Positions 4,099 through 54,088 of a stretch of DNA of 64,000 nt are shown in pieces. The stretch is from NCBI GenBank assembly GCA_028817225.1, contig JAPPQC010000026.1, positions 8,631 through 72,630 on the forward strand, given 5' to 3'. The position numbers and the translations under genes are program-made. Source of the DNA: Gammaproteobacteria bacterium. Its GTDB lineage: Bacteria > Pseudomonadota > Gammaproteobacteria > Poriferisulfidales > Oxydemutatoraceae. The notes beneath the pieces were generated by a model, which was not told where the DNA came from, searched no databases, and saw nothing but the letters and a program-made list of their open reading frames with translations. The stretch's first letter is position 1; the number at the start of each line of letters is the position of its first letter.

Positions 4099-4111
4099 CG
4101 GCGGCGTTTAG

Positions 4112-5398
<1,287 letters not shown>

Positions 5399-5399
5399 G

Positions 5400-6377
5400 T
5401 CAGGCGACGCGGTCGGGCAGGTCGCCGCCGTCCAGCCACGCGCGCAGGTTTTTCAGCACGCGCCGCCCCATCGCAATCCGCGTCTCGCGCGACGCGCTGC
5501 CGAGGTGCGGCAGCAGCACGGCGTTTTCCAGTTCCAGAAAGCCCGGGTCAAGGTTCGGCTCGCCTTCAAAGACATCCAGGCCGGCGCCGGCGATGACGCC
5601 TTTTTTCAGCGCCTCAATCAGCGCCTGGTTGTCAATGACATCGCCGCGCGCGGTGTTGATCAGGAACGAGCCGGGCTTCATCAGCGCGATGCGCTCGCGG
5701 TTCATCAGGTGGCGGGTCTTGTCGCCGCCGGGGCAGTGCAGCGACAGGAAGTCGGCGTCCGGTATCATCTCTTCAAGCGTCGGGTACGAAGTGGCGCCGA
5801 CTTCGCGCACGGCCTTTTCCGGCGGCTCGAACGGGTCGTGGAACAGTATCTTCATGCCGAAGCCGAAGTGCGCGCGGCGCGCGACGGCGCAGGCGATGCG
5901 CCCGAAGCCGACCAGCCCCAGCGTCTTGCCGGTGACCTTCGTGCCGAGCATGTGCGTCGGGCGCCAGCCGCTCCACGCATTGGCGCGGACATGGCGCTCG
6001 CCCTCGCCGATGCGCCGCGCCGCCGTCAGCATCAGTATCATGGCGATGTCGGCGGTGCAGTCGGTCAGCACTTCGGGCGTGTTGGTTACGCGAATGCCGG
6101 CCTTCTTGGCGGCGTCAAGGTCAATGTGGTTGAAGCCGACGCCGAAGTTGCCGAGAAATTGGCAGCGGATGCCGTCGGCGCCGAGCGTCTCGGCGTCCAT
6201 CGGGTCGGTCACCGTCGGCAGCACGCAGTCGGCGCTGCGCAGCGCGTCCTGCAATTCGCCGCGCGACATCGGGCGGTCTTCCTCGTTGAGGCGCACATCG
6301 TTGCACATCTCGCGCAGTTCGTCCTCTACGACGGACGGCCAGCGCCGCGTGACAATGACGGTCGGTGTTTTGCTCAT
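5400..6377 (-). CDS. hprA: D-isomer-specific 2-hydroxyacid dehydrogenase (hydroxypyruvate/glycerate dehydrogenase by context)
   Basis: NAD Rossmann 'GLVGFGRIACAVARRA' and catalytic R/E/H pattern. Last gene of the serine-cycle cluster. Strong SD 'AGAGGAAA' 6 nt upstream. Confidence 0.8.
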   Translation of the reverse strand: MSKTPTVIVTRRWPSVVEDELREMCNDVRLNEEDRPMSRGELQDALRSADCVLPTVTDPMDAETLGADGIRCQFLGNFGVGFNHIDLDAAKKAGIRVTNTPEVLTDCTADIAMILMLTAARRIGEGERHVRANAWSGWRPTHMLGTKVTGKTLGLVGFGRIACAVARRAHFGFGMKILFHDPFEPPEKAVREVGATSYPTLEEMIPDADFLSLHCPGGDKTRHLMNRERIALMKPGSFLINTARGDVIDNQALIEALKKGVIAGAGLDVFEGEPNLDPGFLELENAVLLPHLGSASRETRIAMGRRVLKNLRAWLDGGDLPDRVA

Positions 6378-6395
6378 GGCGGTTTCCTCTTGCTT

Positions 6396-7286
6396 TTATT
6401 TGCGGTCTTTCAGCACTTTGGCCATCGTCGCGCCCAGTTCCGACGGGTTCGGCGCGATGACGACGCCGGCGTTTTTCAGTATTTCGGTCTTCTCGGCGGC
6501 GCTCTCGCCCTTGCCGGAGACGATGGCGCCGGCGTGGCCCATGCGCCGCCCCTTCGGCGCCGTCAGCCCGGCCACATAGGCGACCACCGGCTTGGTCATG
6601 TAACTGCGGATGTATTCGGCGGCCTCGGCTTCCTGCGGGCCGCCGATTTCGCCGATCATCATCACCGCGCGGGTTTCAAGGTCGGTCTCGAACATCTCGA
6701 GGATGTCGCGGTGCGAACTGCCGTTGATGGGGTCGCCGCCGATGCCGACGCTGGTGGAGATGCCGATGCCAGCGGCCTGCATCTGCGACGCGGCCTCGTA
6801 GCCGAGCGTGCCGGAGCGGGCGACGACGCCGATGTTGCCGGCCTTGTAGATGTGGCCGGGCATGATGCCGAGCATCGCCTTGCCGGGGCTGATGGTGCCG
6901 GCGCAGTTGGGGCCGGTCAGCACCATTTTCTTCTCGCGGCGGTAGCGGCGCATGAAGCGCTTGACGCGCATCATGTCGAGCGCCGGGATGCCGTCGGTGA
7001 TGGCGACGCAGTAGCGAATGCCGCCGTCGGCGGCCTCCATGATGGAGTCGGCGGCGGCGGCGGCGGGCACGAACAGCACGCTGGCCTCGGCGCCGGTCTC
7101 GCGCACCGCGTCCTTGACGGTGTTGAAGACGGGCTTGCCGAGGTGGTCGGCGCCGCCCTTGCCGGGCGTCACGCCGCCGACGATGCGGGTGCCGTATTCC
7201 ATCATCTCCTTGGCGTGGAAGGTGCCGATCTTGCCGGTGAAGCCCTGCACGATGACGCGGGTTTTGTCGTCTAACAGTATGGACAT
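6396..7286 (-). CDS. mtkB: malate--CoA ligase (malate thiokinase) alpha subunit (SucD paralogue)
   Basis: CoA-binding/SucD-type alpha subunit ('VIVQGFTGKIGTFH'). Called Mtk rather than Suc because of the adjacent mcl/sga/hprA. Confidence 0.72.
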   Translation of the reverse strand: MSILLDDKTRVIVQGFTGKIGTFHAKEMMEYGTRIVGGVTPGKGGADHLGKPVFNTVKDAVRETGAEASVLFVPAAAAADSIMEAADGGIRYCVAITDGIPALDMMRVKRFMRRYRREKKMVLTGPNCAGTISPGKAMLGIMPGHIYKAGNIGVVARSGTLGYEAASQMQAAGIGISTSVGIGGDPINGSSHRDILEMFETDLETRAVMMIGEIGGPQEAEAAEYIRSYMTKPVVAYVAGLTAPKGRRMGHAGAIVSGKGESAAEKTEILKNAGVVIAPNPSELGATMAKVLKDRK

Positions 7287-7305
7287 GGTCGTTTCTCCGC
7301 GGCGC

Positions 7306-8472
7306 TCAGCGCCGGCTGGCGGCCTCGACGGCCTTGTGGGCGGCTTCGCCGAGCGTTTCCGTCGAGACCAGCGGCAGGCCGCTGTCTTTCAGCATCTTGC
7401 GCCCGACTTCTACATTGGTGCCGGACAGCCGCACGACCAGCGGCACCTTCAGGTTGATGGACTGGATGGCCTTGATCAGGCCCTCGGCGATCCAGTCGCA
7501 GCGGTTGATGCCGGCGTAGATGTTGACCAGCATCGCCTTGACGCTCTTGTCTTGCAGCACCAGTTCAAACGCCTTGGCGACGCGCTCCGGCGACGCGCCG
7601 CCGCCGATGTCGAGGAAGTTGGCGGGTTCGCCGCCGGCGTGCTTGATCATGTCCATCGTCGCCATCGCCAGGCCGGCGCCGTTGATCATGCAGCCGATGT
7701 TGCCTTCCAGGCCGACATAGCTGAGGTCGTGGTCGGAGGCGCTGGTCTCGCGCGGGTCTTCCTGCGACTTGTCGCGCATCTCGGCGATTTCCGGGTGGCG
7801 GAACAGCGCGTTGTCGTCCACGATCATCTTGGCGTCGAGCGCGATCAGTTCGCCGCCCTTGGTGATGACCAGCGGGTTGACCTCGACGAGGCTGGCGTCG
7901 GACTTGATCAGCGCGCGGTAGCAGCCGGTGATGGCGCGTATCGCGTCTTTCAGCAGGGTTTTCGGGATGTTCAGCGCGAACGCGAGTTCGGCGGCCTGAA
8001 AGCGGCGCAGGTCCACCGCCGGGTCAATCGGGATGCGGACAATCGAGTCGGGGCGCTCGGCGGCGAGTTCCTCGATGGCCATGCCGCCGCTGGCCGAGGC
8101 GACGGCGACGATGCGCTCGCTGGCGCGGTCGAGGACGAAGGCGAGGTAGAGTTCGCGGTCAATGTCGGTGCCGGCCTCGATATAGACCTTCTCGACAATC
8201 TTGCCCTGCGGCCCGGTCTGCACCGTCGCCAGCCGCGTGCCGATCATCTGGTTGGTGGCTTTCTGCACCTCTTCCTCGCTTTTGCACAACTTGACGCCGC
8301 CGGCCTTGCCGCGCGCGCCGGAATGAATCTGCGCCTTGACGACGCACGCCGGCGTGCCCAACTGGTGGTAGCAGGTGGTCGCCTGCGCCGGGCTGTACGC
8401 CAGTTTGCCGGCGGCGATGGGGACGCCGTATTGCTGCAAGATTTCCTTCGCCTGGTATTCGTGTATGTCCAC
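7306..8472 (-). CDS. mtkA: malate--CoA ligase (malate thiokinase) beta subunit (SucC paralogue)
   Basis: 'MDIHEYQAKEIL...VVKAQIHSGARGKAGGVKL' ATP-grasp beta subunit. 'AQIH.GARGKAGG' is MtkA-like rather than SucC-like. Confidence 0.72.
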   Translation of the reverse strand: MDIHEYQAKEILQQYGVPIAAGKLAYSPAQATTCYHQLGTPACVVKAQIHSGARGKAGGVKLCKSEEEVQKATNQMIGTRLATVQTGPQGKIVEKVYIEAGTDIDRELYLAFVLDRASERIVAVASASGGMAIEELAAERPDSIVRIPIDPAVDLRRFQAAELAFALNIPKTLLKDAIRAITGCYRALIKSDASLVEVNPLVITKGGELIALDAKMIVDDNALFRHPEIAEMRDKSQEDPRETSASDHDLSYVGLEGNIGCMINGAGLAMATMDMIKHAGGEPANFLDIGGGASPERVAKAFELVLQDKSVKAMLVNIYAGINRCDWIAEGLIKAIQSINLKVPLVVRLSGTNVEVGRKMLKDSGLPLVSTETLGEAAHKAVEAASRR

Positions 8473-8537
8473 TGGTTTTGTCTCCTGTCGCGGCGGCGCG
8501 CGGGCGCGCCGGGCGTGGTTGGTTCAGCGTCGCCGGT

Positions 8538-9485
8538 TCAGCCTTGCCTGGCCTCGATGACCCGGGCCATCTTGACGACATTCTCGGCCATGCGCGCCGA
8601 CGCCGCGTCAATCATCTTGCCGTCGAGCGACGCCGCGCCGCGGCCTTCGGCGGCGGCTTTTTCCAGTTCCTCGAGGATGCGGCGCGCCTTGTTGACCTCG
8701 GCTTCGGGCGGCGAGAACACCTCGTTGGCGAGCGCGATTTGCGACGGGTGGATTGCCCACTTGCCTTCAATGCCGAGCGCCGCGGCGCGGCGCGCCGCCA
8801 GCGTGTAGCCTTCGGCGTCGTTGAAGTCGCCGAACGGGCCGTCTATCGGGCGCAGGCCGAAGGCGCGGCACGCCACCGTCATCCGCGTGATGGCGGCGTG
8901 CCACTGGTCGCCGGGGTAGTCGGGGTTGAGGCCGCCGATGTTGACGGTGCGCGCGCGGTTGCTGGCGGCGTAGTCGGCGACGCCGAAATGCAGCGCCTCA
9001 AGCCGCGTGCACGGCGACGCCGCGATGCGCTCGACATTGGCCATGCCGAGCGCCGTCTCAATCAGCGCCTCGAGGCCGATGCGGTGGCCGATGCCCTTGG
9101 CCTCCTCGATTTGCGACACCATCACATCCACGGTGTAGAGGTCGTCGGGCACGCCGACTTTCGGCACCAGGATGGTGTCCAGATGCTGTCCGGCCTGTTC
9201 GACGACATCCACGACATCGCGGTACATGTAATGCGTGTCAAGGCCGTTGATTCGCACCGACACGGTCTTGCCGGCGTTCTTCCAGTCAAGCGAGTTGAGC
9301 GCCTCGATGATGTTCTTGCGCGCCTGCAACTTGTCGTCGGGGGCGACGGCGTCTTCCAGGTCGAGGAACACATAGTCGGCGTCGCAGGCAAGCGCCTTTT
9401 CAATCATGCGCGGGTTGGAACCGGGCACCGCCAGTTCGCTGCGCTGCAAGCGCTCGCGCGCCGGTTCAAATCTTGTGTGGCTCAT
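8538..9485 (-). CDS. mcl: L-malyl-CoA/beta-methylmalyl-CoA lyase (HpcH/HpaI-CitE aldolase family)
   Basis: 'YVFLDLEDAVAPDDKLQARKN...' CitE-like TIM-barrel lyase in a serine-cycle context. Confidence 0.8.
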   Translation of the reverse strand: MSHTRFEPARERLQRSELAVPGSNPRMIEKALACDADYVFLDLEDAVAPDDKLQARKNIIEALNSLDWKNAGKTVSVRINGLDTHYMYRDVVDVVEQAGQHLDTILVPKVGVPDDLYTVDVMVSQIEEAKGIGHRIGLEALIETALGMANVERIAASPCTRLEALHFGVADYAASNRARTVNIGGLNPDYPGDQWHAAITRMTVACRAFGLRPIDGPFGDFNDAEGYTLAARRAAALGIEGKWAIHPSQIALANEVFSPPEAEVNKARRILEELEKAAAEGRGAASLDGKMIDAASARMAENVVKMARVIEARQG

Positions 9486-30219: not shown

Positions 30220-30296
30220 GCGCCCGTAGCTCAGTTGGATAGAGTACCTGGCTACGAACCAGGTGGTCGGAGGTTCGAATCCTTCCGGGCGCGCCA
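30220..30296 (+). tRNA. tRNA-Arg (anticodon ACG)
   Basis: Cloverleaf folds. Anticodon loop CU-ACG-AA. Close to E. coli argV. Ends in CCA. Confidence 0.9.
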
Positions 30297-40949: not shown

Positions 40950-41846
40950 ACTGATTTTTTTCGCCTCCATCAGGTTCAGCGCCTCGACGGCGAGGTCGTC
41001 GCGCCCGACGGAGTGGAAGGCGCGCGTCATCATCGTGTCAATCGTCGCCCCCATGATGTCGGTGTCGTTGTCGAGCGCGCGCCGCAGGTCGCCGTCGGTG
41101 AACAGGCCGTGCACGGTGCCGGCGTCGTCCACGACCAGCGTCATGCCCAGCCCCTTGCGCGACATTTCGTAGAGCGCGTCGGTCAGTTGCGCGCCCGGCG
41201 GCACCCTCGGGATGGCGTCGCCGGTGCGCATCAGGTCGGCGACTTTCAGAATCAGGCGCTTGCCGAGATGGCCGCCGGGGTGCGAGCGCGCGAAGTCCTC
41301 GGCGGTGAAGTCGCGGTTGCTGAGCAGCGCGATGGCGAGGGCGTCGCCCATCGCCAGCGCCGCCGCGGTGCTCGCCGTCGGCGCCAGCCCCAGCGGGCAG
41401 GCCTCCTGCTCGACGGCGGTGTCGAGGCACACATCGGCGGCCCTGCCGAGGGTCGAGTCGCAGTTGCCGGTCAGCACAATCAGCGGCGTGCGCAGCCTTT
41501 TCAGCGACGGCAGCAGCGAGTTGATTTCGGCGGTCTCGCCGGAGTGCGACAGCACGACAATCACATCGTCGCCGCTGATCATGCCGAGGTCGCCGTGGCC
41601 GGCCTCCGCCGGGTGAATGTAGAAGGCGGTGCTGCCGGTGCTCGCCAGCGTCGAGGTGATCTTGTTGGCGATGTGGCCGGATTTGCCGATGCCCATCAGC
41701 ACGATGCGCCCGGCGCATTCGTTCAGCAGGCGGCACGCGCGGTGGAAGTTCTCGTCAATCCGCCCGCGCAGCGCGCGGATGGCCTCGGCCTCGGTGTCGA
41801 GCACCGCGATGGCGAGTTTTCGGACTTCCTCGAATTCAAATTTCAT
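40872..41846 (-). CDS. kdsD: arabinose-5-phosphate isomerase (SIS + tandem CBS)
   Basis: '[17 protein letters not shown]' SIS motif and C-terminal CBS pair. Start at the internal ATG 41846. The 723-aa ORF extension is an artefact. Confidence 0.88.
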
Positions 41847-42811
41847 GGCAGCGCGGCGACCTCCTGCCGGTAGAGCAGCCACTGATACAGGCAGAAACCG
41901 CCGAGCAGCAGCGCCCCCTTCAGCCTGTCCAGTTGCAGGCGCCGCGGAACCAGCGTCAGCAGCAGCAACAGCGCGACCGTCAGTGTAACACTGGCGAAGA
42001 AATCGCGCTGCAAGACCTTGCCGGGCAGCGTCGTCGGGCTTAGCAGCGCGGCGATGCCGACGACGCCGAGGCTGTTGAAAAGGTTGGAGCCGAGAATGTT
42101 GCCGACGGTGATGTCGTGGTGTTTTCTCCAGGTGCTGGCGACGGTCGCGGCCAGTTCCGGCAGGCTGGTTCCGACGGCGACGATGGTCAGGCCAATCAGC
42201 AGTTCGCTGACGCCGAAATGGTGCGCGATGCCGGTGGCGGAGCGGACGATCAGGTGCGACGCCAGCAGCAGCACCGCAAGCCCGCCGGCAAACCACGCCC
42301 ACGCGCGCGCCGCGCCCGGATGCCGCACATCCTCCTCCACCGCTTCCTCGGCTGCGGCGGGCAGCGTCCTGACCAGCAGGTAGAGAATCAGGAACAGCGC
42401 CGACACCAGGATGACGCCGTCGTCCACGCCGAGTTCGGAATCGGCCAGCACCAGTCCCAGCGTGACGGTGGCGGCGGCCAGTATCGTGAACTTGACCGTC
42501 ATCACCGGCGCCTTGACGGTGATGGCGTGGGTGATGGAGACGGCGCCCAGCACCAGGCCGATGTTGGCGATGTTGGAGCCGATGGCGTTGCCGACGGCGA
42601 TTTGCGGCGTGCCGCCGAGCGCCGCCAGCGCCGACACCAGCAGTTCCGGCGCCGAGGTGCCGAAGCCGATGACGATGCCGATGCCGACCGCCGAAATGCC
42701 CAGCAGGCGGGCGACGACGACCGCGCCGCGCATCATGCGGTCGGCGGACCACATCAGCAGCCCGATGCCGGCGGCGAGGCCGAGCCACAGCGGTGTCATT
42801 CCGGTCAGCAT
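41843..42811 (-). CDS. yrbG: Na+/Ca2+ exchanger family inner-membrane protein (YrbG-like)
   Basis: Two alpha-repeat regions 'GTSAPEL' and 'GTSLPEL'. Conserved position upstream of kdsD. Confidence 0.8.
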   Translation of the reverse strand: MLTGMTPLWLGLAAGIGLLMWSADRMMRGAVVVARLLGISAVGIGIVIGFGTSAPELLVSALAALGGTPQIAVGNAIGSNIANIGLVLGAVSITHAITVKAPVMTVKFTILAAATVTLGLVLADSELGVDDGVILVSALFLILYLLVRTLPAAAEEAVEEDVRHPGAARAWAWFAGGLAVLLLASHLIVRSATGIAHHFGVSELLIGLTIVAVGTSLPELAATVASTWRKHHDITVGNILGSNLFNSLGVVGIAALLSPTTLPGKVLQRDFFASVTLTVALLLLLTLVPRRLQLDRLKGALLLGGFCLYQWLLYRQEVAALP

Positions 42812-42833: not shown

Positions 42834-42863
42834 CTTGCAACGCGCGCAGGCGCGTATTATAAT
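42834..42863 (+). promoter_or_regulatory. candidate sigma70 promoter TTGCAA-N18-TATAAT upstream of the tRNA-Ile/tRNA-Ala/23S unit
   Basis: Same -35 hexamer (TTGCAA) as the promoter in front of the 5S gene. Confidence 0.35.
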
Positions 42864-42868
42864 GCCCC

Positions 42869-42899
42869 GGTCATGCCGTTGCGGCATGGCCGTTTTTTT
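42869..42899 (+). terminator. terminator-like hairpin (10-bp stem GGTCATGCCG/CGGCATGGCC, loop TTG) followed by a U-tract
   Basis: Direct reading. Function ambiguous because it lies just downstream of the candidate promoter. Confidence 0.35.
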
Positions 42900-42965
42900 G
42901 ACGCAGTCCGTGTGGACCGGGGGCATGCAATCCGGGTGTTGACGCCCGTTGCCGTGAAGACAACC

Positions 42966-43042
42966 GGGTCTGTAGCTCAGCTGGTTAGAGCACACCCCTG
43001 ATAAGGGTGAGGTCGGTGGTTCAAGTCCACCCAGACCCACCA
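42966..43042 (+). tRNA. tRNA-Ile (anticodon GAT)
   Basis: Near-identical to E. coli tRNA-Ile(GAU). Anticodon loop CU-GAU-AA. Confidence 0.92.
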
Positions 43043-43060
43043 CGATGCACCGCGATGCGC

Positions 43061-43136
43061 GGGGCCGTAGCTCAGCCGGGAGAGCGCCTGCTTTGCAAGC
43101 AGGAGGTCAGGAGTTCGATCCTCCTCGGCTCCACCA
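43061..43136 (+). tRNA. tRNA-Ala (anticodon TGC)
   Basis: Near-identical to E. coli tRNA-Ala(UGC), 'GCCTGCTTTGCAAGCAGG'. Confidence 0.92.
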
Positions 43137-43307
43137 GCGGGGCGGCGAAACCCAATGCCGTTTTATTTGCAAGCCGCATTGGGCTTCGCTGCAAGCGAAG
43201 GGTTTTTTGACAATTAGCAAAGCCAGGATTCGCGGAAACATCCCGTTTCCGTGAATAACATTGTATCCAACACCAGTAACCTCGGCGGAGACTGCTTGAG
43301 GTTATAT

Positions 43308-46192
<2,885 letters not shown>

Positions 46193-46257
46193 TAACACTC
46201 AAGCACTTTCGTGCCTGTTGCAATGTGATTCAATGTGATTCCCGGCTTTGTTCATGT

Positions 46258-46291
46258 CAAAGGCGCCGCCCGCGCGGGCGGCGCCTTTTTT
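46258..46291 (+). terminator. rho-independent terminator directly after 23S (GGCGCCGCCCG-CGC-GGGCGGCGCC + T7)
   Basis: Perfect GC stem followed by TTTTTTT. Confidence 0.7.
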
Positions 46292-46380
46292 TGTGCGTTT
46301 TTGCGTGTTTTGCCGGCGGCGGCGCGGCGCCGGGGAAGGGCGGTTTTGCGAAAAGCGCGGCCTGTGTGTGTTCTCCGCTA

Positions 46381-46423
46381 TTGACTTTGGCATAGAGGGG
46401 GGTAGCATGGCGCATTCCACCCA
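46381..46423 (+). promoter_or_regulatory. promoter/operator motif copy 1 (TTGACT-N16-TAGCAT + GCGCATTCCAC)
   Basis: Conserved with the 48838-48881 copy. GGAGGA SD before ATG 46442. Confidence 0.4.
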
Positions 46424-46441
46424 TAACTCATCTGGAGGAGA

Positions 46442-47746
46442 ATGATGATATTAACCAAAAATTTCGCTCGTGGATTCAAACGGGCATCTTCGGGGCTTGG
46501 TTACGCAATGGTTTGTTTTTCCGCCGTCATGGCTTGTTTCTCATCCGTTGTCGCCGCTCCGAAGGTCGCTCACGAGACGGTGTTGTCCAATCTCGACAAT
46601 CCATGGGACATGGCGTTTCTGCCGGACGGAACAATGTTCTTCACCGAGAAATGTCACGGCCTTTCGGTGCGGCTGCCTTCGGGCAAAGTCAACAAATTGC
46701 TCGGCATGAAAGACAGCAAGGGTTACGCCTCGACCGCGCGTGATCTCTTCTGCGAGGGCCAGGCCGGCATGCAGGGCGTGGCCGTTGACCCCGATTTTTC
46801 CAAAAACCGGCAGATTTATGTCTATTCCACATCCGACAAGAGCGCATCCGGCAGCAACCGCCTGATGCGGATGAAGGTCAACAGCGGTTTCAGCGGCGTG
46901 TCCGGCAGGACCGACATCATTGACGATGTCCCGTACAAGCCGAAGGCGACCAATCACCCGTTCGGCGGGCCTGGCGCGCACAACGGAGGCCGTGTTCGTT
47001 TCGGGCCGGACGGGTATATCTACCTGACCACCGGCGACACGCACAACGGCAAGGTTCCGCAAAGCCCGACGCTGCTCGGCGGCAAAGTGCTGCGCGTTGA
47101 CCGCGACGGCAAGGCGGCGTCCGGCAACAAGCCGCCGAAAGGCTACGACAAGCGCATCTACACCTACGGGCACCGCAATGTGCAGGGCATCGCCTTCCGC
47201 CCGGGTGACGGCACGCCGGTGGTGGCCGAGCACGGCCCCTGGCACTCCGATGAAATCACCGTGCTGAAGAACGGCGGCAACGCCGGCTGGGATCCGCGCC
47301 CCAATGTGGCCGGTCGCGGCGACTGCCCGAACGGCTACTGCGGCTACATGCCGAACCAGATGGAAGGCGTGAATCCGATGGAACGGGCAAAATACATGCC
47401 GATGACGGATCTCAAGACCTACCCGGACGCCATGCGCCCGGCCTGGGTCAACAAAGGGCTGTCGCAGGGCACCTCCAGCGCCGCGTTTCTGACCGGCAAG
47501 CAGTGGGGCGACTGGAATGGCCGTCTCGCCGTCGGAATCCTCGGAATCGGTTTCGGCGGGACGCCGGTCGGCCACCGCATTGATGTGATTGAACTCTCCA
47601 AAGACGGCATGTCCGCGGGCGAAGTCATCCCGATGTCGCTGCCGATGGCATCGGGCCGCTTCCGGTCGGTGGTGCAGGGGCCGGACGGCAGCCTCTACGC
47701 AGCCGTGGATGAAGGCGCAATCTTCAAACTGACGCCCAGGAGTTAA
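46442..47746 (+). CDS. PQQ-dependent sugar dehydrogenase (soluble aldose/glucose-sorbosone dehydrogenase family)
   Basis: Signal peptide and six-bladed beta-propeller GSDH motifs. AT-rich 5' end. Confidence 0.8.
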   Translation: MMILTKNFARGFKRASSGLGYAMVCFSAVMACFSSVVAAPKVAHETVLSNLDNPWDMAFLPDGTMFFTEKCHGLSVRLPSGKVNKLLGMKDSKGYASTARDLFCEGQAGMQGVAVDPDFSKNRQIYVYSTSDKSASGSNRLMRMKVNSGFSGVSGRTDIIDDVPYKPKATNHPFGGPGAHNGGRVRFGPDGYIYLTTGDTHNGKVPQSPTLLGGKVLRVDRDGKAASGNKPPKGYDKRIYTYGHRNVQGIAFRPGDGTPVVAEHGPWHSDEITVLKNGGNAGWDPRPNVAGRGDCPNGYCGYMPNQMEGVNPMERAKYMPMTDLKTYPDAMRPAWVNKGLSQGTSSAAFLTGKQWGDWNGRLAVGILGIGFGGTPVGHRIDVIELSKDGMSAGEVIPMSLPMASGRFRSVVQGPDGSLYAAVDEGAIFKLTPRS

Positions 47747-47775
47747 TCAACCCGGCTCTGCCGCGCCGCCCGGCG

Positions 47776-48132
47776 GTGCGGCAGGGTCTTGCGCCTGTTC
47801 AATCATCAATGAAAGCGTTGGCATTTTCCGCCGCCGTTCTTGTGCTGATGCCCGTTGCGGCGTCAGCGCAGGAGACGGGCGCCGACACCGTGGCGAAGGT
47901 TTATGCGGAGGTGTGCTCCAAGTGTCACGGCCCGACCGCGCGGGGAATGGCGAGTTTCCCGCGGCTTTCGGACAAGGAGAAGGCGTATCTCGCCGACCGG
48001 CTCAGGCGATACCGCGCCGGAGAAATGGTCGGCCCCAATACCCCCCTGATGATGCCGCACGCGGTCAACCTGACCGACGCCGAGATTGACGAACTGGCGG
48101 CCTATATTTCCACGGCTTTTGCAGGGAACTGA
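47776..48132 (+). CDS. class I c-type cytochrome
   Basis: Signal peptide and a single 'CSKCHG' CXXCH haem motif. Start ambiguous (47776 or 47809). Confidence 0.7.
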   Translation: MRQGLAPVQSSMKALAFSAAVLVLMPVAASAQETGADTVAKVYAEVCSKCHGPTARGMASFPRLSDKEKAYLADRLRRYRAGEMVGPNTPLMMPHAVNLTDAEIDELAAYISTAFAGN

Positions 48133-48235
48133 AGAACCGCCCTGGCTGGCCGGGGAGCGGCGATTCGTTGTGATTCAGCGCGCCGCCTGACACCGGCGCC
48201 GCACCCCGGCAATGCCTGCCGGTTTTGTACATGTC

Positions 48236-48270
48236 AAAGGCGCCGCCCCGCACGGGCGGCGCCTTTTTTT
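48236..48270 (+). terminator. rho-independent terminator between the convergent cytochrome c and SRPBCC genes (near-copy of the 23S terminator)
   Basis: GGCGCCGCCCCG-CAC-GGGCGGCGCC + T7. The about 55 bp around it repeat the element at 46247-46295. Confidence 0.6.
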
Positions 48271-48292
48271 GTCGCCGGCGCCGGCGCCCCGC

Positions 48293-48823
48293 TCAGTTGA
48301 AGTGGCGCGCGAGGCTGCCGAGGCCCGCCTCATAGACGCCGGCCATCGTCTCGACGGCTTTTTCGTCCGGCGCGTCCTTGGCGTCGAAAGTGCCCGACCA
48401 GGTCACCGTGGCCTTGCCGCCCGGCGCGCCTTTGACGGCAACGACCGACTCGTAGTTTTTCACCGGCAGCGGCCCGCCGGTAATCCGGTAGGTGTAACTC
48501 TTGTCGTAGTCGCTGTGTTTGACCAGCACCTCAGTCACTTCGGCGCCGTCGGCCAGCGTCAGCACGCGCACCGCGCCTTCCTTGTTGTGTTGCCCCTTCT
48601 TGAGGGTGCTCATGACGACGACGGGGTGCCAGACATCAAGATGGTTGAAGTGGCCGATCATCTTCCAGGCCGTTTCCGGCGATGCATTGACCGTCGTCTG
48701 TTTCTCGACGCTGAGTTTTCCGCCGGCCTGCGCGGACGGCGCCGCAAGGCACAAGGCCGCGGCCAGTGCGATGCCGGTTGCGATTCCGGAAAAGGGCGAT
48801 TTTGTGCAAAGTGTGTTTTTCAT
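48293..48823 (-). CDS. SRPBCC (Bet v1-like/polyketide cyclase) family secreted protein
   Basis: Signal peptide then the SRPBCC fold. Start at internal ATG 48823 with a GGGAGAA SD. Confidence 0.6.
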   Translation of the reverse strand: MKNTLCTKSPFSGIATGIALAAALCLAAPSAQAGGKLSVEKQTTVNASPETAWKMIGHFNHLDVWHPVVVMSTLKKGQHNKEGAVRVLTLADGAEVTEVLVKHSDYDKSYTYRITGGPLPVKNYESVVAVKGAPGGKATVTWSGTFDAKDAPDEKAVETMAGVYEAGLGSLARHFN

Positions 48824-48837
48824 GTTTTCTCCCAGTA

Positions 48838-48881
48838 TTGATTTTGGTATAGGAGAGGGTAATATAGCGCATTTCCACGCC
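48838..48881 (+). promoter_or_regulatory. promoter/operator motif copy 2 (TTGATT-N16-TAATAT + GCGCATTTCCAC); partial third copy at 48897-48925
   Basis: Aligns position for position with copy 1. Upstream of the TonB-dependent receptor. Confidence 0.4.
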
Positions 48882-48960
48882 GCTCTTTCCCGAATATTGA
48901 CTTTGACGGGGGTGGCATTCGGCACATTTTTACACCCCGAAAACCTCAAGGAGTCCCGAC

Positions 48961-51357
48961 ATGCAAGCATTGCACCACGGCGGGCACGGTTGCAAAACCG
49001 CCGCCGCCGCTGCCGCGCTTCTCTGCGTTCTGACAGGCGTTCCCGCGCCGGTGCAGGGCGCGGAGGCCGAGAAAATCATCGTCATCGGCACCACGCCGGT
49101 GCGCCAGGACGACCTCGACGCGGGCGACTTTCCGGGGCGCATCCAGAGCGCCGGCAGCAAGGAACTCGGCGCCAGCGTCAGCGCCGACATTTCCGGCTAC
49201 CTGAACCGCTATTTCGGCGGCGTGCACATCAACTCGGCGCAGGGCAATCCGCTGCAGGTGGATTTGTACTACCGCGGCTTCGCCGCATCGCCGCTGCTCG
49301 GCCTGCCGATGGGCATGGCGGTGTACCAGAACGGCGTGCGCCTGAACGAACCGCTCGGCGACACCGTGAACTGGGATCTGGTGCCGATGAACGCCGTCGC
49401 CGGCCTCAGCCTGCTGAGCGGCTCCAACCCGCTTTACGGCCTCAACACACTGGGCGGCGCAATCGTGATTGAGATGAAGAACGGCTTTACCCATCCGGGG
49501 CACGCGGTCGAGGCCGAGGGCGGCTCGTATGAGCGCTTCATCGGCAACTTCGAGAGCGGCGGCAACAACGGCGAGTTCGCCTGGTATGTCAACGCGCAGC
49601 GCTTCTACGAGGGCGGCTGGCGCGACTTGTCGAAGTCGTGGGCCGAGAACCTCTACGCGAGTTTCGACTGGCGCGGCGACGGAGCGACGCTCGGGCTGAA
49701 CTACCACCGCGGACGCTCCGACCTGAAGGGCAACGGCCTGCTGCCGGCGGGCCTGCTCGACGGCGAGCGCGATGCGATTTTCACGGCGCCCGACATCACC
49801 GAGAACGATATGTACCTGTGGGCGCTCCGGGGCGACTATCAAATCGGCGACGATGTGCGCCTGTCGGGCAACCTCTATTACCGCGACAACGCCACCGACT
49901 CGTTCAACGGCGACGGCGCCGAAGAGGAACTGATTGATCCCGCCGACCCGATGGACCGGGTGCAGGCGTGCGAGGACATCTCATGCGACGCGGTCAACAA
50001 CATCAGCGAACGCAGCCAGCGCGCGCACGGCGGCGTGCTGGAACTGGACTTCCCGCTCGACTGGTTCGGCCTTCAGCACGACCTCAACGCCGGCATGGGC
50101 TATTACGAGGGCCGCAGCACCTTCGACTCGCGCGTGCAATACGCCACACTCGACCCGAACACGCGCTCAACGCGCGGGCCGCGATCCGTCGCCGGCGCCT
50201 TCAGCGACGACGACGATGACATCACCGATGTCAAGACGCGCGTCAAGCGCACCTATCTGTATCTCGGCGACAGCATCTCCGTCGGTGACGCCTGGACGGT
50301 CAACCTGGCCGGCTTCTACCACGACAGCGAAATCCGGCTGACCGACCGCACCGGCGACCAGCCCGAACTGAACGGCAGCCACGACTACGACAACTTCAAC
50401 TGGAGCACCGGCGCCGTCTGGCACTGGCGTTCCGACACCGACTTCTACGGCAGTTACAGCGAATCAAGCCGCCTGCCGACGCCGATAGAACTCGCGTGCA
50501 GCGAGGAGATTCTGGCCGCACGGGCCGCTTCCGGCGGCGGCGACGAAGTGGAGTGCCGCCTGCCCAATGCGTTCCTCGCCGACCCGCCGCTTGACGAGGT
50601 CATCTCGGAGACCTTCGAGTTCGGCGTGCGCGGCGCCGCCGCCAACGGCTGGCTGTGGTCGCTGGGCGCGTTCCACACCGAGAACAACGACGACATCATC
50701 TGGCAGACAACGGGCCGCGCCCACGGCGCATTCCGCAATGTGGACAAGACCCGGCGGGTCGGCCTTGAGGCGTCGCTTGCGGGCGACTACGGGCGGCTCG
50801 ATTGGAGACTGAACTACACCTGGCTTGAGGCGACATTCGAGGACGACTTCGAGGCGCTGGTCAGCGAGGACTACGCGGCCCTCGGCGCCACGGTGCGCGA
50901 GGTGTGCCCGAACCGCGGCACCGGATGCGCCGCCGCCGACATGGTGGAGGTCGCCAGTGTCGGCAAGGGCGACGACATTCCCGGCATTCCGCAGCATCTG
51001 TTCAAGGCCGCCGCGGATTACGCGTTCACCGACCGGTTTTCGATGGGAGTGGACATGATCGCGGTTTCCGACAGCCATCTGCGCGGCGACGAGTCCAACC
51101 AGTTGGACGAGGTCAGCGGCTACGCCGTGTTCAACGCGCGCGCCAACTACCGCGCCGGCGGTTTCGAGGCGTTTGTGCTGGTTGAGAACCTGTTCGACCG
51201 CGACTACGAGAACTTCGGCCTGATCGGCGAGGAGCCGGAACTCGGCAGGGAAGTGGGCGGCGACCCGTCGGTGCTGGAACTCGACGACGAAAGAGCGCTC
51301 TACTACGCCCCCGGCGCCCCGTTGTCGGTGTGGGGCGGCGTGCGCTGGCGCTTCTGA
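48961..51357 (+). CDS. TonB-dependent outer-membrane receptor
   Basis: Signal peptide, plug and beta-barrel. Terminal 'RWRF' aromatic residue. AAGGAG SD. Confidence 0.88.
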   Translation: MQALHHGGHGCKTAAAAAALLCVLTGVPAPVQGAEAEKIIVIGTTPVRQDDLDAGDFPGRIQSAGSKELGASVSADISGYLNRYFGGVHINSAQGNPLQVDLYYRGFAASPLLGLPMGMAVYQNGVRLNEPLGDTVNWDLVPMNAVAGLSLLSGSNPLYGLNTLGGAIVIEMKNGFTHPGHAVEAEGGSYERFIGNFESGGNNGEFAWYVNAQRFYEGGWRDLSKSWAENLYASFDWRGDGATLGLNYHRGRSDLKGNGLLPAGLLDGERDAIFTAPDITENDMYLWALRGDYQIGDDVRLSGNLYYRDNATDSFNGDGAEEELIDPADPMDRVQACEDISCDAVNNISERSQRAHGGVLELDFPLDWFGLQHDLNAGMGYYEGRSTFDSRVQYATLDPNTRSTRGPRSVAGAFSDDDDDITDVKTRVKRTYLYLGDSISVGDAWTVNLAGFYHDSEIRLTDRTGDQPELNGSHDYDNFNWSTGAVWHWRSDTDFYGSYSESSRLPTPIELACSEEILAARAASGGGDEVECRLPNAFLADPPLDEVISETFEFGVRGAAANGWLWSLGAFHTENNDDIIWQTTGRAHGAFRNVDKTRRVGLEASLAGDYGRLDWRLNYTWLEATFEDDFEALVSEDYAALGATVREVCPNRGTGCAAADMVEVASVGKGDDIPGIPQHLFKAAADYAFTDRFSMGVDMIAVSDSHLRGDESNQLDEVSGYAVFNARANYRAGGFEAFVLVENLFDRDYENFGLIGEEPELGREVGGDPSVLELDDERALYYAPGAPLSVWGGVRWRF

Positions 51358-51380
51358 CGCCGCGCCGCGCCGCGCGGCGG

Positions 51381-51409
51381 TTGCAATCCACCCCGGCGCC
51401 CGTTATAAT
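51381..51409 (+). promoter_or_regulatory. near-consensus sigma70 promoter TTGCAA-N17-TATAAT in front of the 5S rRNA
   Basis: Direct reading. Only 1 mismatch to TTGACA, with a perfect TATAAT. Confidence 0.55.
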
Positions 51410-51447
51410 CGCCGTTTCCGACAAACCAGACTGTGAGATTTGCAGCC

Positions 51448-51540
51448 ATGATGAAAGTACCGCTGGAAAACATGATCTCGCCGATCATCTTTTTCGCCAT
51501 ATTGGGTTTTCTGGATTACCTGATTGCCACCGCGCGCTGA
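51448..51540 (+). CDS. possible 30-aa hydrophobic leader peptide (MMKVPLENMISPIIFFAILGFLDYLIATAR)
   Basis: ATG-initiated ORF between the promoter and the 5S. No clear SD. Possibly spurious. Confidence 0.15.
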   Translation: MMKVPLENMISPIIFFAILGFLDYLIATAR

Positions 51541-51558
51541 GCTGCGCGACAACCGGTT

Positions 51559-51678
51559 TGCCTGGCGGCCATAGAGTGCTGGTACCACCCGATCCCATTC
51601 CGAACTCGGAAGTGAAACGGCGCATCGCCGATGGTAGTACGGGGCCTCCCCGTGTGAGAGTAGGACACCGCCAGGCAT
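51559..51678 (+). rRNA. rrf: 5S ribosomal RNA
   Basis: 'TGCCTGGCGGCCATAG...GAAGTGAAAC...GATGGTAGT...GAGAGTAGGACACCGCCAGGCAT' aligns with E. coli 5S along its whole length. Confidence 0.9.
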
Positions 51679-51696
51679 TGTTTTTGCGCGCGCGCG

Positions 51697-52482
51697 ATGG
51701 ATTTTGACCTTGAATTTTTTCTGGTGCTCGGGACGCTGGTCACCGGGCTGGTCGCGCTCGCCGCGCGCCTGTCCGCCAGGCGCACGCAGGACGAAGACAA
51801 GGCGGCGGAAAAGCCGGCCCGCTTCGGCTGGGCCGTGGACGGCGCGCGGTCTTTCTTTCCGATTCTGCTGATTGTCCTTCTGCTGCGAAGTTTCGTCGTC
51901 GAGCCGTTCCGGATTCCGTCCGGCTCGATGCTGCCGACGCTGGAAATCGGCGACTTCATACTCGTCAACAAATACACCTACGGCCTGAAACTGCCGGTTT
52001 TGCACGACACCATCGTTCCCGTCGGCGCGCCGCGCACCGGTGATGTCGCCGTGTTCCGCTACCCGCGCGACGCCAGCCAGGACTACATCAAGCGCATCGT
52101 CGGCGTGCCCGGCGACCACATCATCTACCGCGACAAGCAACTCCAGATTAACGGCGAGGTCATCGGGCAGGCCGAACGGGAGGACCTCGGCGTGTTTTCG
52201 GAGATGCTGCCGATTGAGATGCAGCGCAGGAGCGAATCGCTGCCGGGCGCCGGCCACGACATTCTGCTGGCGCCGTCGGTCAGCCAGCCGATGGGGCAGT
52301 GGCGCGTGCCGCCCGGCCACTATTTCGTCATGGGCGACAACCGCGACAACAGCAACGACAGCCGCGCCTGGGGATTTGTTCCGGAGGCCAACCTCGTCGG
52401 CAGGGCGTTCCTGATCTGGATGCACTGGGACTACGGCGCGGGCCGTTTTGATCTCTCGCGCATCGGCACGGTCATCCGCTAA
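51697..52482 (+). CDS. lepB: signal peptidase I
   Basis: 'IPSGSMLPTL' Ser box, 'KRIVGVPGD' Lys box, 'GDNRDNSNDSR'. Confidence 0.88.
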   Translation: MDFDLEFFLVLGTLVTGLVALAARLSARRTQDEDKAAEKPARFGWAVDGARSFFPILLIVLLLRSFVVEPFRIPSGSMLPTLEIGDFILVNKYTYGLKLPVLHDTIVPVGAPRTGDVAVFRYPRDASQDYIKRIVGVPGDHIIYRDKQLQINGEVIGQAEREDLGVFSEMLPIEMQRRSESLPGAGHDILLAPSVSQPMGQWRVPPGHYFVMGDNRDNSNDSRAWGFVPEANLVGRAFLIWMHWDYGAGRFDLSRIGTVIR

Positions 52483-53202
52483 ATGCCGGCGCTCGAAGAT
52501 CTGCTGAAACCGGGTTTTCTCGACCAGCCGCTGTTCCGGCGGGCCGTCACGCACCGCAGCGCCGGCAGCGGCCACAACGAACGCCTTGAATTTCTCGGCG
52601 ACGCGGTGCTGCAACTGGTCATCACCGAGACGCTCTACGAACGCTTCCCCGAAGCCGACGAGGGCGCCCTCAGCAAACTGCGCGCGCACCTCGTGCGCCG
52701 CGAGACGCTGTCGGCCATCGCGCGCCGGTGGCGCCTTGGCGACAATCTGGTGCTGGGGCCGGGCGAGGTCAAGAGCGGCGGCGGCGCGCGCGAGTCCATT
52801 CTTGCCGATGCGTTCGAGGCCGTCGTCGGCGCGCTGTATCTGTGCGAGGGCCTGCGCGCCGCGCGCGGTTTCATCGCCGCCGTCTTCGGCGAGCGGCTGT
52901 CGTCGCCGGCGCCCGCCGGGCGCTTGCAGGACGCCAAAAGCCAGCTGCAGGAATACGCGCAATCGCGCGGCGCGCAACTGCCGGTGTATCAGGTCATCGC
53001 GCAAGACACGCGCGGCGGCGACCGCTTCTTCCGCGTCGCGTGCACGCTGCCGGGCCTCGGCGTCGAGGCGCGCGGCGAGGGCGCGTCCAAGCGCAAGGCC
53101 GAACAAAACGCCGCCGAATCCGCGCTGCGGTGGATTGCCGATGACCGCCATGGCGAGGCCGATCATCGCTGCGGCGATGCCGATGACCGCGACGGCGATT
53201 GA
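52483..53202 (+). CDS. rnc: ribonuclease III
   Basis: 'ERLEFLGDAVL' RNase III signature and dsRBD. Unusual acidic C-terminal tail. Confidence 0.9.
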   Translation: MPALEDLLKPGFLDQPLFRRAVTHRSAGSGHNERLEFLGDAVLQLVITETLYERFPEADEGALSKLRAHLVRRETLSAIARRWRLGDNLVLGPGEVKSGGGARESILADAFEAVVGALYLCEGLRAARGFIAAVFGERLSSPAPAGRLQDAKSQLQEYAQSRGAQLPVYQVIAQDTRGGDRFFRVACTLPGLGVEARGEGASKRKAEQNAAESALRWIADDRHGEADHRCGDADDRDGD

Positions 53203-54088
53203 TTGCGCGCCGACGCGCTGCGGCGCCGTCGCCCTCGTCGGCAAGCCCAACGCCGGCAAGTCCACGCTGTTCAACCGCCTGGTCGGGCGGCGCCTGTCGC
53301 CGGTTACGCACAAACCGCAGACGACGCGGCGCAATGTGCGCGGCATCCTGACCGGCGACGACTTTCAGATCATCTTCATTGACACGCCGGGGCTGTACCG
53401 CGGCGGCCACGGCGTGATGGACCGCGTGCTGAACAGAAACGCGCGCAACGCGCTGTCGGAAGTGGACCTGGTGGCGCTGGTCACGCCGGCGCTGCGGTGG
53501 AGCCGCGGCGACGAGGCGGTGCTCGGGCTGGCGCGCGAATCGGGCCGCGCCGTGGTGCTGGTGCTCAGCAAGGTGGACCTGGTGAAGGAAAAGGGGCGGC
53601 TGCTGCCGGTGATGAAGGAATTCTCCGAACAACGCGGCTGCGCCCGGATTGTGCCGGTGTCGGCGCTGACCGGCGAGGGCGTCGCGCGCCTGACGGCGGA
53701 ACTGGCCGAATCGCTGCCCGAGGCCGGCTTCCTGTTCCCGCGCGACTGCGACAGCGACCGCGGCCCGGGCTTCACCGCCTGCGAGTTGATACGCGGCAAG
53801 GTCATGGAAGTGCTGCACCAGGAACTGCCGTACAACACGCATGTCGCGCTCCGCTCGTTTGAGGACGGGCCGTCGCTGCTGCGCATCGCCGCGGTGCTGA
53901 TGGTCGGCAAGCCCGGCCAGCGCGGCATCGTCATCGGCGCCGGCGGCGCGCGGCTGAAACAGATCGGAACGCTGGCGCGGCTGGAACTGGAGCGCGTCTT
54001 TGACAAGCGCGTGTTTCTGAAACTGTCGGTCGAGGTCAGGCCGCACTGGCAGCGCGACCCGGCCATCCTGCGCGAATACCTCGGATAG
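53177..54088 (+). CDS. era: GTPase Era
   Basis: 'GKPNAGKSTL', 'DTPG' G-motifs and a KH domain. Start is 53177 or 53183. Confidence 0.88.
   Translation: MPMTATAIDCAPTRCGAVALVGKPNAGKSTLFNRLVGRRLSPVTHKPQTTRRNVRGILTGDDFQIIFIDTPGLYRGGHGVMDRVLNRNARNALSEVDLVALVTPALRWSRGDEAVLGLARESGRAVVLVLSKVDLVKEKGRLLPVMKEFSEQRGCARIVPVSALTGEGVARLTAELAESLPEAGFLFPRDCDSDRGPGFTACELIRGKVMEVLHQELPYNTHVALRSFEDGPSLLRIAAVLMVGKPGQRGIVIGAGGARLKQIGTLARLELERVFDKRVFLKLSVEVRPHWQRDPAILREYLG

Follow-up and report, generated by a model that had tools for sequence, protein, structure and literature searches.

Unlinked 16S and 23S ribosomal RNA (rRNA) genes are widespread, and the passages of a survey drawn on here give Buchnera, Rickettsiales, Helicobacter and Deinococcus-Thermus as examples (Brewer et al., bioRxiv 10.1101/705046; PMC7761764). 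In that survey's one passage on Gammaproteobacteria, Buchnera is the only group of the class to be named (bioRxiv 10.1101/705046; PMC7761764). In Leptospira, rrs, rrl and rrf are scattered and form no operons (PMC4274889), and in Thermoplasma acidophilum the rRNA genes are fully dispersed, according to a passage of the survey that cites this case (cited in PMC7761764). Here we describe a split rRNA locus on a 64,000-nucleotide (nt) stretch of a gammaproteobacterial contig (GenBank assembly GCA_028817225.1, contig JAPPQC010000026.1, positions 8,631 to 72,630 of the forward strand), hereafter the window, which is numbered from its first letter. The genes for transfer RNA (tRNA)-Ile, tRNA-Ala and 23S rRNA form one unit (unit A, 42835-46295), and the 5S gene lies 5.3 kilobases (kb) further on in a second (unit B, from 51381), directly upstream of lepB-rnc-era. 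Comparison with relatives leads us to a structural and comparative model, to which we give a probability of roughly 0.7, that the clade has a dispersed rRNA organisation with separate transcription units.

As in the genomes of the survey passages used here (bioRxiv 10.1101/705046; PMC7761764), the 23S gene has no preceding 16S and has its own promoter, and the genomes of the relatives are small. Unlike in those genomes, where the 5S normally stays with the 23S, the 5S of this clade is detached as well. The clade also differs from Buchnera in being an uncultured lineage from metagenomes, with a guanine-plus-cytosine (GC) content of 46-68%. It resembles Leptospira and Thermoplasma in having the 16S, 23S and 5S at separate loci with the 5S expressed alone, as predicted here from sequence only. 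These organisms belong to different phyla, however, and unlike them the clade keeps tRNA-Ile and tRNA-Ala with the 23S and holds the 5S fixed inside a protein-gene cluster, in the order small open reading frame (smORF)-5S-lepB-rnc-era.

In Escherichia coli, stable RNAs are co-transcribed with protein genes in thrU-tyrU-glyT-thrT-tufB and metY-rimP-nusA-infB. The 5S unit is similar in that a strong promoter is followed by a stable RNA gene and, right after it, by protein genes; the RNA would be cut from a mixed transcript. The E. coli cases differ in that the RNAs are tRNAs and their co-transcription has been demonstrated, whereas here the RNA is an rRNA, co-transcription is deduced, and a translated smORF comes first. 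Relative to the canonical gammaproteobacterial lepA-lepB/rnc-era-recO cluster, the order lepB-rnc-era-recO-pdxJ-acpS is unchanged, but lepA, which precedes lepB in 30 of the 39 outgroup loci with full flanks and never in the clade with 5S-lepB, is replaced by promoter-(smORF)-5S. In the literature we found no report of a 5S gene upstream of lepB-rnc-era, and precedents only for unlinked or scattered rRNA genes. Dispersed rRNA genes are already known, and a 5S fixed before lepB is an unusual variant rather than a new category.

The 23S unit and the 5S unit

RNA genes were called with Rfam and ARAGORN, and protein genes were confirmed by Pfam matches and by genes called in independent assemblies. 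On the plus strand, tRNA-Ile (GAT; 42966-43042) and tRNA-Ala (TGC; 43061-43136), both found by Rfam/ARAGORN, are followed by a full-length 23S gene at 43308-46191 (Rfam RF02541, 2854.6 bits, model positions 1-2925). Rfam detected no small subunit (16S) rRNA gene in the whole 64 kb, which reaches 42.9 kb to the upstream side of the 23S unit and 17.8 kb to its downstream side. The site where a 16S would be expected is occupied by yrbG (41843-42811, minus strand), a gene of Na+/Ca2+ exchanger type (Pfam Na_Ca_ex, E = 1.4e-54) that reads away from the tRNA/23S unit and has its start codon 155 nt upstream of tRNA-Ile; a SIS/CBS gene, also on the minus strand, comes before it. As far as the sequence indicates, the 16S is unlinked from the 23S unit and would lie elsewhere. 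The only 5S gene in the window is a full-model match at 51561-51676 on the plus strand (Rfam RF00001, 100.1 bits), and by analogy with the E. coli termini the mature 5S would extend over 51559-51678.

Two separate units are apparent from the sequence, each with a conserved, near-consensus sigma70 promoter. The candidate promoter of the tRNA-Ile/tRNA-Ala/23S unit (42835-42863, plus strand) and that of the smORF-5S(-lepB) unit (51381-51409, plus strand) both consist of TTGCAA, a 17-nt spacer and TATAAT, and both match 10 of 12 consensus positions. The pattern TTGCRA-N16-18-TATRAT occurs at these two sites only in the 64 kb, counting both strands, with 0.00 occurrences expected from shuffled sequence. 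The original prediction placed yrbG rather than a 16S upstream of tRNA-Ile, a terminator of its own at the end of the 23S and a TTGCAA-N17-TATAAT promoter ahead of the 5S, all of which hold. The promoter hexamers that it placed upstream of tRNA-Ile are likewise real, but they start at 42835, not 42834, and are 17 nt apart, not 18. It also listed four protein genes between the 23S and the 5S; all four are confirmed by Pfam, but a 30-codon smORF had been missed.

Just after the 23S-unit promoter, a leader hairpin (42868-42892) is followed by TTTTTTTGACGCAGTCC, together spanning 42868-42909 on the plus strand. A second hairpin, with GGTTTTTTGACAATTAGC, occupies 43184-43218 (plus strand) in the spacer between tRNA-Ala and the 23S, and at both places the hairpin is followed by (G)TTTTTTGAC. 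Relatives preserve these elements. Upstream of tRNA-Ile, the contigs L087, L097 and L098 carry the same TTGCAA-17-TATAAT hexamers and spacing, and TATTATAAT is invariant in the alignment of 23S-unit promoter regions. The leader hairpin is kept in four lineages: 86% of cells are paired, compared with 34-57% when the register is slid, and in three of the pairs both partners have changed (four sequences only). The GTTTTTT that follows is invariant across lineages. An equivalent hairpin with a T-run (GGTTTTTTGA) lies between tRNA-Ala and the 23S in L087, L097 and L098. Both hairpin/U-rich elements resemble boxA consensus sequences only loosely. By position, recurrence and this loose likeness, we read them as putative boxB/boxA-like antitermination signals of an rrn-type leader.

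The flanks of the 23S at 43293-43314 and 46184-46206 are complementary, as read directly from the sequence, which fits a normal processing stem. The predicted intrinsic terminator of the unit follows on the plus strand at 46259-46295, with a 13-base-pair (bp) stem (46259-46288, 10 GC pairs) and then T7. A GC-rich hairpin with a T-rich tail after the 23S is also found in L087/L099 and L097, at the same position and with a different sequence.

The 5.3-kb interval between the 23S and the 5S holds five open reading frames, one of them on the opposite strand. These are a GSDH-family gene for a sugar dehydrogenase of the pyrroloquinoline quinone (PQQ) type (46445-47746, plus strand; Pfam GSDH, E = 5e-57), a cytochrome c gene (47809-48132, plus strand; Pfam and independent gene calls), an SRPBCC (Polyketide_cyc2) gene found by Pfam at 48293-48823 on the minus strand, convergent with the 23S, a TonB-dependent receptor gene (48961-51357, plus strand; Pfam and independent gene calls) and the smORF. 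Co-transcription of the 23S and the 5S is unlikely, because the predicted terminator and the convergent SRPBCC gene lie between them. The TonB-dependent receptor has a weak, partial match, far below cutoff, to the PQQ receptor family PqqU (NCBIfam NF041535, E = 3.2e-17). Its position near an inserted PQQ-type dehydrogenase suggests a possible functional link.

The smORF (51448-51540, plus strand) encodes a hydrophobic peptide of 30 amino acids, MMKVPLENMISPIIFFAILGFLDYLIATAR, and is called as a gene in independent assemblies. Its frame is always 30 codons, and the ratio of synonymous to nonsynonymous codon changes is 5:1 against L087 and 7:1 against L088. With its frame kept and synonymous changes in excess, the smORF is under purifying selection and behaves as a real coding gene. 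It matches no Pfam or NCBIfam family, and an exhaustive HMMER search of 1.8 billion proteins returned only two representative clusters. On a 2.1-megabase (Mb) circular contig (L100, 10001-10811), a homologue with 70% identity and a strong Shine-Dalgarno sequence lies upstream of a class I methyltransferase gene, with no 5S near it. Therefore the smORF is independent of the 5S: it would be a small gene of the lineage in its own right, for a predicted membrane peptide, and not a by-product of the 5S flank.

From the smORF stop codon to the 5S there are 18 nt, and another 18 nt separate the 5S from the start codon of lepB. On the plus strand, lepB (51697-52482), rnc (52483-53202) and era (53141-54088), identified by Pfam and gene calls, are followed by recO-pdxJ-acpS. 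The consensus fold of the 5S is canonical, with compensatory changes in helices I, II and IV/V among six lineages. Its flanks are U-rich and single-stranded, GG|UUU before and GU|UUU after, and match the loose preference of RNase E. The 5S-lepB spacer of the window carries only a weak 5-bp hairpin, and a consensus scan of the window found no promoter-like site in or after the 5S, before lepB. The lepB start codon lies in a GC-alternating tract able to pair with sequence just upstream of the 5S. A 9-mer, GACAACCGG, that stands before tRNA-Ile and before the 5S was considered as a shared processing signal and rejected: it occurs three times in the window, a count equalled in 6 of 100 shuffles, and the two sites place it differently with respect to the mature ends. 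The sole further RNA gene of the 64 kb is a tRNA-Arg (ACG) at 30220-30296, which is unrelated to the rRNA loci.

Conservation among relatives

Close relatives were found by protein search and by context look-ups with exact proteins, and their loci were scanned with Rfam and blastn. The window itself reads yrbG (minus strand), promoter, tRNAs, 23S, terminator, GSDH, cytochrome c, second terminator, SRPBCC gene (minus strand), TonB receptor gene, promoter, smORF, 5S and lepB. The exact LepB protein of the window was found on nine contigs; the six places shown carry an identical 5S, with the same gene order where they are long enough. The long-read contigs L087 and L099 (LepB 79% and YrbG 90% identical; 1.83-Mb circular contig) have the layout of the window minus GSDH-cytochrome c. 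In L097 and L098 (YrbG 71-72%), yrbG (minus strand) is followed by promoter, tRNAs, 23S, SRPBCC gene (minus strand), TonB receptor gene and petABC, and no 5S occurs within 6 kb after the 23S. The remaining contigs show the 5S unit. L088 and L091 (LepB 70-72%) have a his cluster, NIF3, promoter, smORF, 5S and lepB, and in L089 and L090 (LepB 70%) yrbG (minus strand) and about 520 nt precede promoter, smORF, 5S and lepB. L104, on a circular 2.38-Mb contig shared with L097, has CRISPR-cas genes upstream of promoter, smORF, 5S, a hairpin and lepB. The most distant loci are those of L093 (LepB 57%, GC 46%), with promoter, a smORF-like frame of 28 amino acids, 5S, terminator and lepB, and L095 (LepB 59%), with promoter, hairpin leader, 5S and lepB and no smORF.

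The 5S thus lies directly upstream of lepB in L087, L088-L091, L093, L095 and L104, while the DNA upstream of the 5S-lepB unit represents at least five contexts (TonB receptor gene, NIF3/his cluster, yrbG, CRISPR-Cas and a sulfotransferase gene). The 5S-unit promoter is kept in an alignment of seven lineages, with L087, L088-L091 and L104 as the relatives. Its -35 element TTGCRA and -10 element TATRAT are retained and the spacer and upstream DNA diverge; downstream come a conserved 5' untranslated region, the smORF and then a nearly invariant 5S. All eight taxa that carry a 5S upstream of lepB group in one exclusive clade of a neighbour-joining LepB tree with 59 taxa. A single origin of the 5S-lepB junction is indicated by this grouping, and from these comparisons the junction would be ancestral to the clade. 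As an outgroup we used the best 80 LepB matches listed in the genome collection, all at most 56% identical to the LepB of the window. By blastn, a 5S or 23S was found in the 10 kb upstream of lepB at none of these best 80 loci, all from other Gammaproteobacteria; five were also scanned with Rfam. In the clade, judged by synteny, the 5S and its promoter, mostly with the smORF, appear to hold the position that lepA has in other Gammaproteobacteria. A scan of JGI metagenomes with a 39-nt clade-specific 5S pattern gave no matches.

The 23S unit has a conserved setting of its own. The order yrbG, promoter, tRNAs, 23S, hairpin and SRPBCC gene is kept in four lineages, and no 5S follows the 23S in any of them. 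In L087, L099, L097 and L098, yrbG neighbours the tRNA/23S unit, the SRPBCC gene adjoins the 23S, and no 16S lies beside it. In L097/L098 it is the 23S, and not the 5S, that the TonB receptor and SRPBCC genes accompany. By the coordinates of the record, about 111 kb of the circular contig ctg22198_26x_c separate the 23S (L097) from the 5S (L104), and both genes are read from the same strand.

In one sample, L089/L090 (9100-9620) and L098 (9379-10012) share about 330 nt beyond yrbG and then diverge, L098 leading to the tRNA/23S promoter and L089/L090 to the smORF-5S-lepB promoter. L088 has a LepB identical to that of L089/L090, but NIF3 upstream. The differences among L088-L090 and L098 look like structural polymorphism among co-occurring strains, with breakpoints beside the rRNA units. 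L104 carries, at 3723-9238, cas1-cas2-cas4, a 3.3-kb gene-free gap that is probably a CRISPR array, and a PBECR2-domain gene directly upstream of smORF-5S-lepB; an IS605/Cas12f-like TnpB gene lies downstream of that unit. In two other small-genome gammaproteobacterial metagenome-assembled genomes, L058 (9143-9216) and L011 (9488-9561), a tRNA gene and not lepA lies 0.5-0.9 kb upstream of lepB, which places another stable-RNA gene in the upstream-of-lepB position.

One part of the interval between the 23S and the 5S has a different history from the rest. A 53-nt direct repeat, made up of the 23S terminator and its flank, has its left copy at 46242-46294 and its right copy at 48219-48272 (both plus strand), the latter containing a terminator hairpin at 48236-48266. 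The copies are 92.6% identical over 54 nt (blastn) and bracket a 1978-bp segment with GSDH, cytochrome c and a promoter-like site at 46381-46408. In L087 and L099 there is a single terminator at the same place and the GSDH-cytochrome c segment is absent; the sequences that border the pair of repeats in the window, to the left of the left copy and to the right of the right one, correspond to the two sides of L087's single terminator/SRPBCC junction. These junctions identify GSDH-cytochrome c as a recent insertion in the lineage of the window, in an event that would have duplicated 53 nt of the 23S terminator. It is the only demonstrably recent part, and on the same comparative grounds the SRPBCC and TonB receptor genes are older neighbours of the 23S.

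Competing explanations

Are the two units a recent accident rather than an organisation of the clade? A canonical tRNA-23S-5S operon might have been split lately by four inserted genes, leaving the 5S as a stranded remnant behind a fortuitous or newly acquired promoter. The shared strand, the canonical order and the distance of only 5.3 kb would agree with this, as would the GSDH-cytochrome c segment, a truly recent insertion with flanking direct repeats. Yet the 5S-lepB linkage and the promoter are kept where LepB is only 57-79% identical and the upstream DNA is unrelated, the position of the 23S terminator is conserved, the SRPBCC and TonB receptor genes remain beside the 23S even where 111 kb separate it from the 5S, and no contiguous 23S-5S followed by lepB was found across the clade. 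We consider a recent split of this kind quite improbable. The original prediction had described cargo inserted between the 23S and 5S, which is borne out for GSDH-cytochrome c and fails for the SRPBCC and TonB receptor genes; its notion of an evolutionary split does not apply to the recent past and may be right at a much deeper time scale. Contiguous 23S-5S genes, which it had proposed to look for in relatives, are absent from the four lineages with a 23S unit, and the two genes are about 111 kb apart in one closed contig. Nor is the 5S "stand-alone" as had been stated: it belongs to a conserved promoter-smORF-5S-lepB-rnc-era unit and is fixed beside lepB throughout the clade. A chimeric contig, joining an rRNA fragment to unrelated DNA by faulty assembly or binning, deserves hardly any weight, even though rRNA genes are frequent sites of metagenome misassembly and the 23S of the contig L001 has a local patch of mismatches. 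Faulty assembly does not explain the arrangement, because the same sequence occurs in six independent assemblies, short-read ones with identical junctions, and the same layout, with homologous junctions, in several long-read contigs of relatives, circular ones included.

A normal 16S-23S-5S operon could also exist elsewhere in the genome, with the 23S and 5S of the window as extra and perhaps poorly expressed copies. Such a possibility finds room in the scope of our rRNA scans, which covered the 64-kb window and the locus stretches of the relatives. Two short-read contigs bear on it as well. Position 1 of the Logan contig L002 corresponds to window position 46244, exactly the left edge of the 53-nt repeat, after the 23S 3' flank, and everything up to that flank behaves as repeat or shared sequence in that assembly graph. 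The ENA contig L001 is identical to window 41697-62482 apart from 46 mismatches within a 370-nt stretch of the 23S, confined to 45298-45671. This patch may stem from a second 23S allele, from heterogeneity among strains, or from short reads assembled into a chimera across a conserved part of the rRNA. Against redundant copies, both genes have their full length and score very high in Rfam, the 5S is nearly invariant with compensatory changes across the clade, and promoters, leader elements and processing stems are conserved. The genomes of the relatives are small (circular contigs of 1.8-2.6 Mb), and small genomes usually carry a single rRNA set. Breaks of metagenome contigs at rRNA genes are, moreover, expected for other reasons. 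Extra or decaying copies are unlikely in our view. Intactness and conservation argue that the rRNA genes of the window are functional, an argument that does not extend to their being the sole copies; that they are the only copies is something we infer.

A further alternative accepts the two units and concerns where the second one ends. The transcript from 51381 might stop right after the 5S, at helix I and its U-rich tail or at the hairpins of the relatives, with lepB-rnc-era transcribed from a separate, unrecognised promoter. Relatives with longer 5S-lepB spacers speak for it, where the extra sequence is a hairpin and a T-rich tail: the spacer of L093 holds a clear terminator (10-bp stem, ATTTCTTTTT), and those of L088 and L104 hold weaker terminator-like hairpins. 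Transcription at rRNA level would also far exceed the need for lepB. On the other side stand the 18 nt between the 5S and the lepB start codon in the window and L087/L099, the negative promoter scan in and after the 5S, and the absence of lepA, the usual upstream partner and promoter donor. This autonomous 5S transcript is doubtful, while deserving serious weight. Since lepA is absent, the 5S-lepB gap is 18 nt and no promoter-like site was found, lepB-rnc-era would most simply be transcribed by read-through from the 51381 promoter; on this geometry we regard co-transcription of the 5S with lepB as an evenly balanced call.

Besides the scope of the scans, several observations weigh against the model of separate units on a clade-wide pattern as we have drawn it. 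Promoter activity, terminators and processing sites are read from consensus and comparison. The leader element of the 23S unit has the canonical form of an intrinsic terminator, a stem and U7, right after the promoter. A role as the true terminator of an upstream gene was rejected: the sole upstream gene is on the other strand, and a hairpin of this kind with its U-run appears again in the spacer between the tRNAs and the 23S, as it does in every relative. L095 is without the smORF and the smORF of L093 is only 38% identical, and the peptide is not essential to the arrangement. No recognisable Shine-Dalgarno sequence precedes lepB at 51679-51700 (GCGCGCGCGCGATG), nor in the relatives, and lepB could have an unrecognised promoter overlapping the 5S. 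Finally, shuffled sequence pairs as well as the 5S flanks are predicted to do (z = -0.79). A long processing stem from these flanks, which the fold predicts, is not clearly conserved either, and we do not claim one.

Mechanism, history and significance

Under the dispersed organisation that we favour, unit A would run from its promoter through the leader hairpin/boxA-like element, tRNA-Ile, tRNA-Ala, a second such element and the 23S within its processing stem to the terminator. Unit B would run from a promoter of the same type through the translated 30-codon membrane smORF and the 5S into lepB-rnc-era-recO-pdxJ-acpS. The 5S would then be made from its own strong promoter inside an mRNA-like transcript and released by RNase E-type cleavage at the U-rich flanks, as in the processing of E. 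coli 9S RNA. Polymerases that pass the 5S would transcribe lepB-rnc-era, and in several relatives they would also have to pass the hairpin/T-rich element after the 5S. These hairpins fit a regime that stops the majority of transcripts after the 5S and lets the remainder reach lepB.

The 23S and 5S probably descend from an operon upstream of lepB that was split long ago, the 5S staying with lepB, because in the window, L087 and L099 the two genes share a strand, keep the canonical order and lie only 3-5 kb apart, a coincidence hardly to be expected in a genome of 2 Mb. Later rearrangements would have moved the 23S block away, to a distance of 111 kb in the genome of L097/L104.

Unlinked rRNA genes are usually framed as a 16S set apart from a 23S-5S pair, mostly in symbionts and a few phyla, and in this gammaproteobacterial clade all three appear to lie apart. 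There are practical consequences. Taxonomy from long reads of rRNA operons and amplicon methods that span the 16S, internal transcribed spacer and 23S would miss the lineage, and the 5S-lepB junction may serve as a simple synteny marker for the clade.

A 5S fixed inside the essential RNase III/Era operon would offer a natural system for asking how the three rRNAs reach equal amounts without co-transcription, and would allow study of the release of an rRNA from an mRNA-like precursor. It also bears on whether ribosome-biogenesis factors can fall under the control of an rRNA promoter. Tentatively, and with some doubt, we suggest that clade-wide the 5S comes from an mRNA-like polycistronic transcript, that lepB (signal peptidase I), rnc (RNase III, which processes rRNA) and era (a GTPase of ribosome assembly) stand under an rRNA-type promoter with attenuation at or after the 5S, and that biogenesis factors would in this way be made under direct control of that promoter. 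Translation of the smORF might protect the untranslated 5S segment from Rho-dependent termination, taking the place of the putative boxA antitermination system of the 23S unit.

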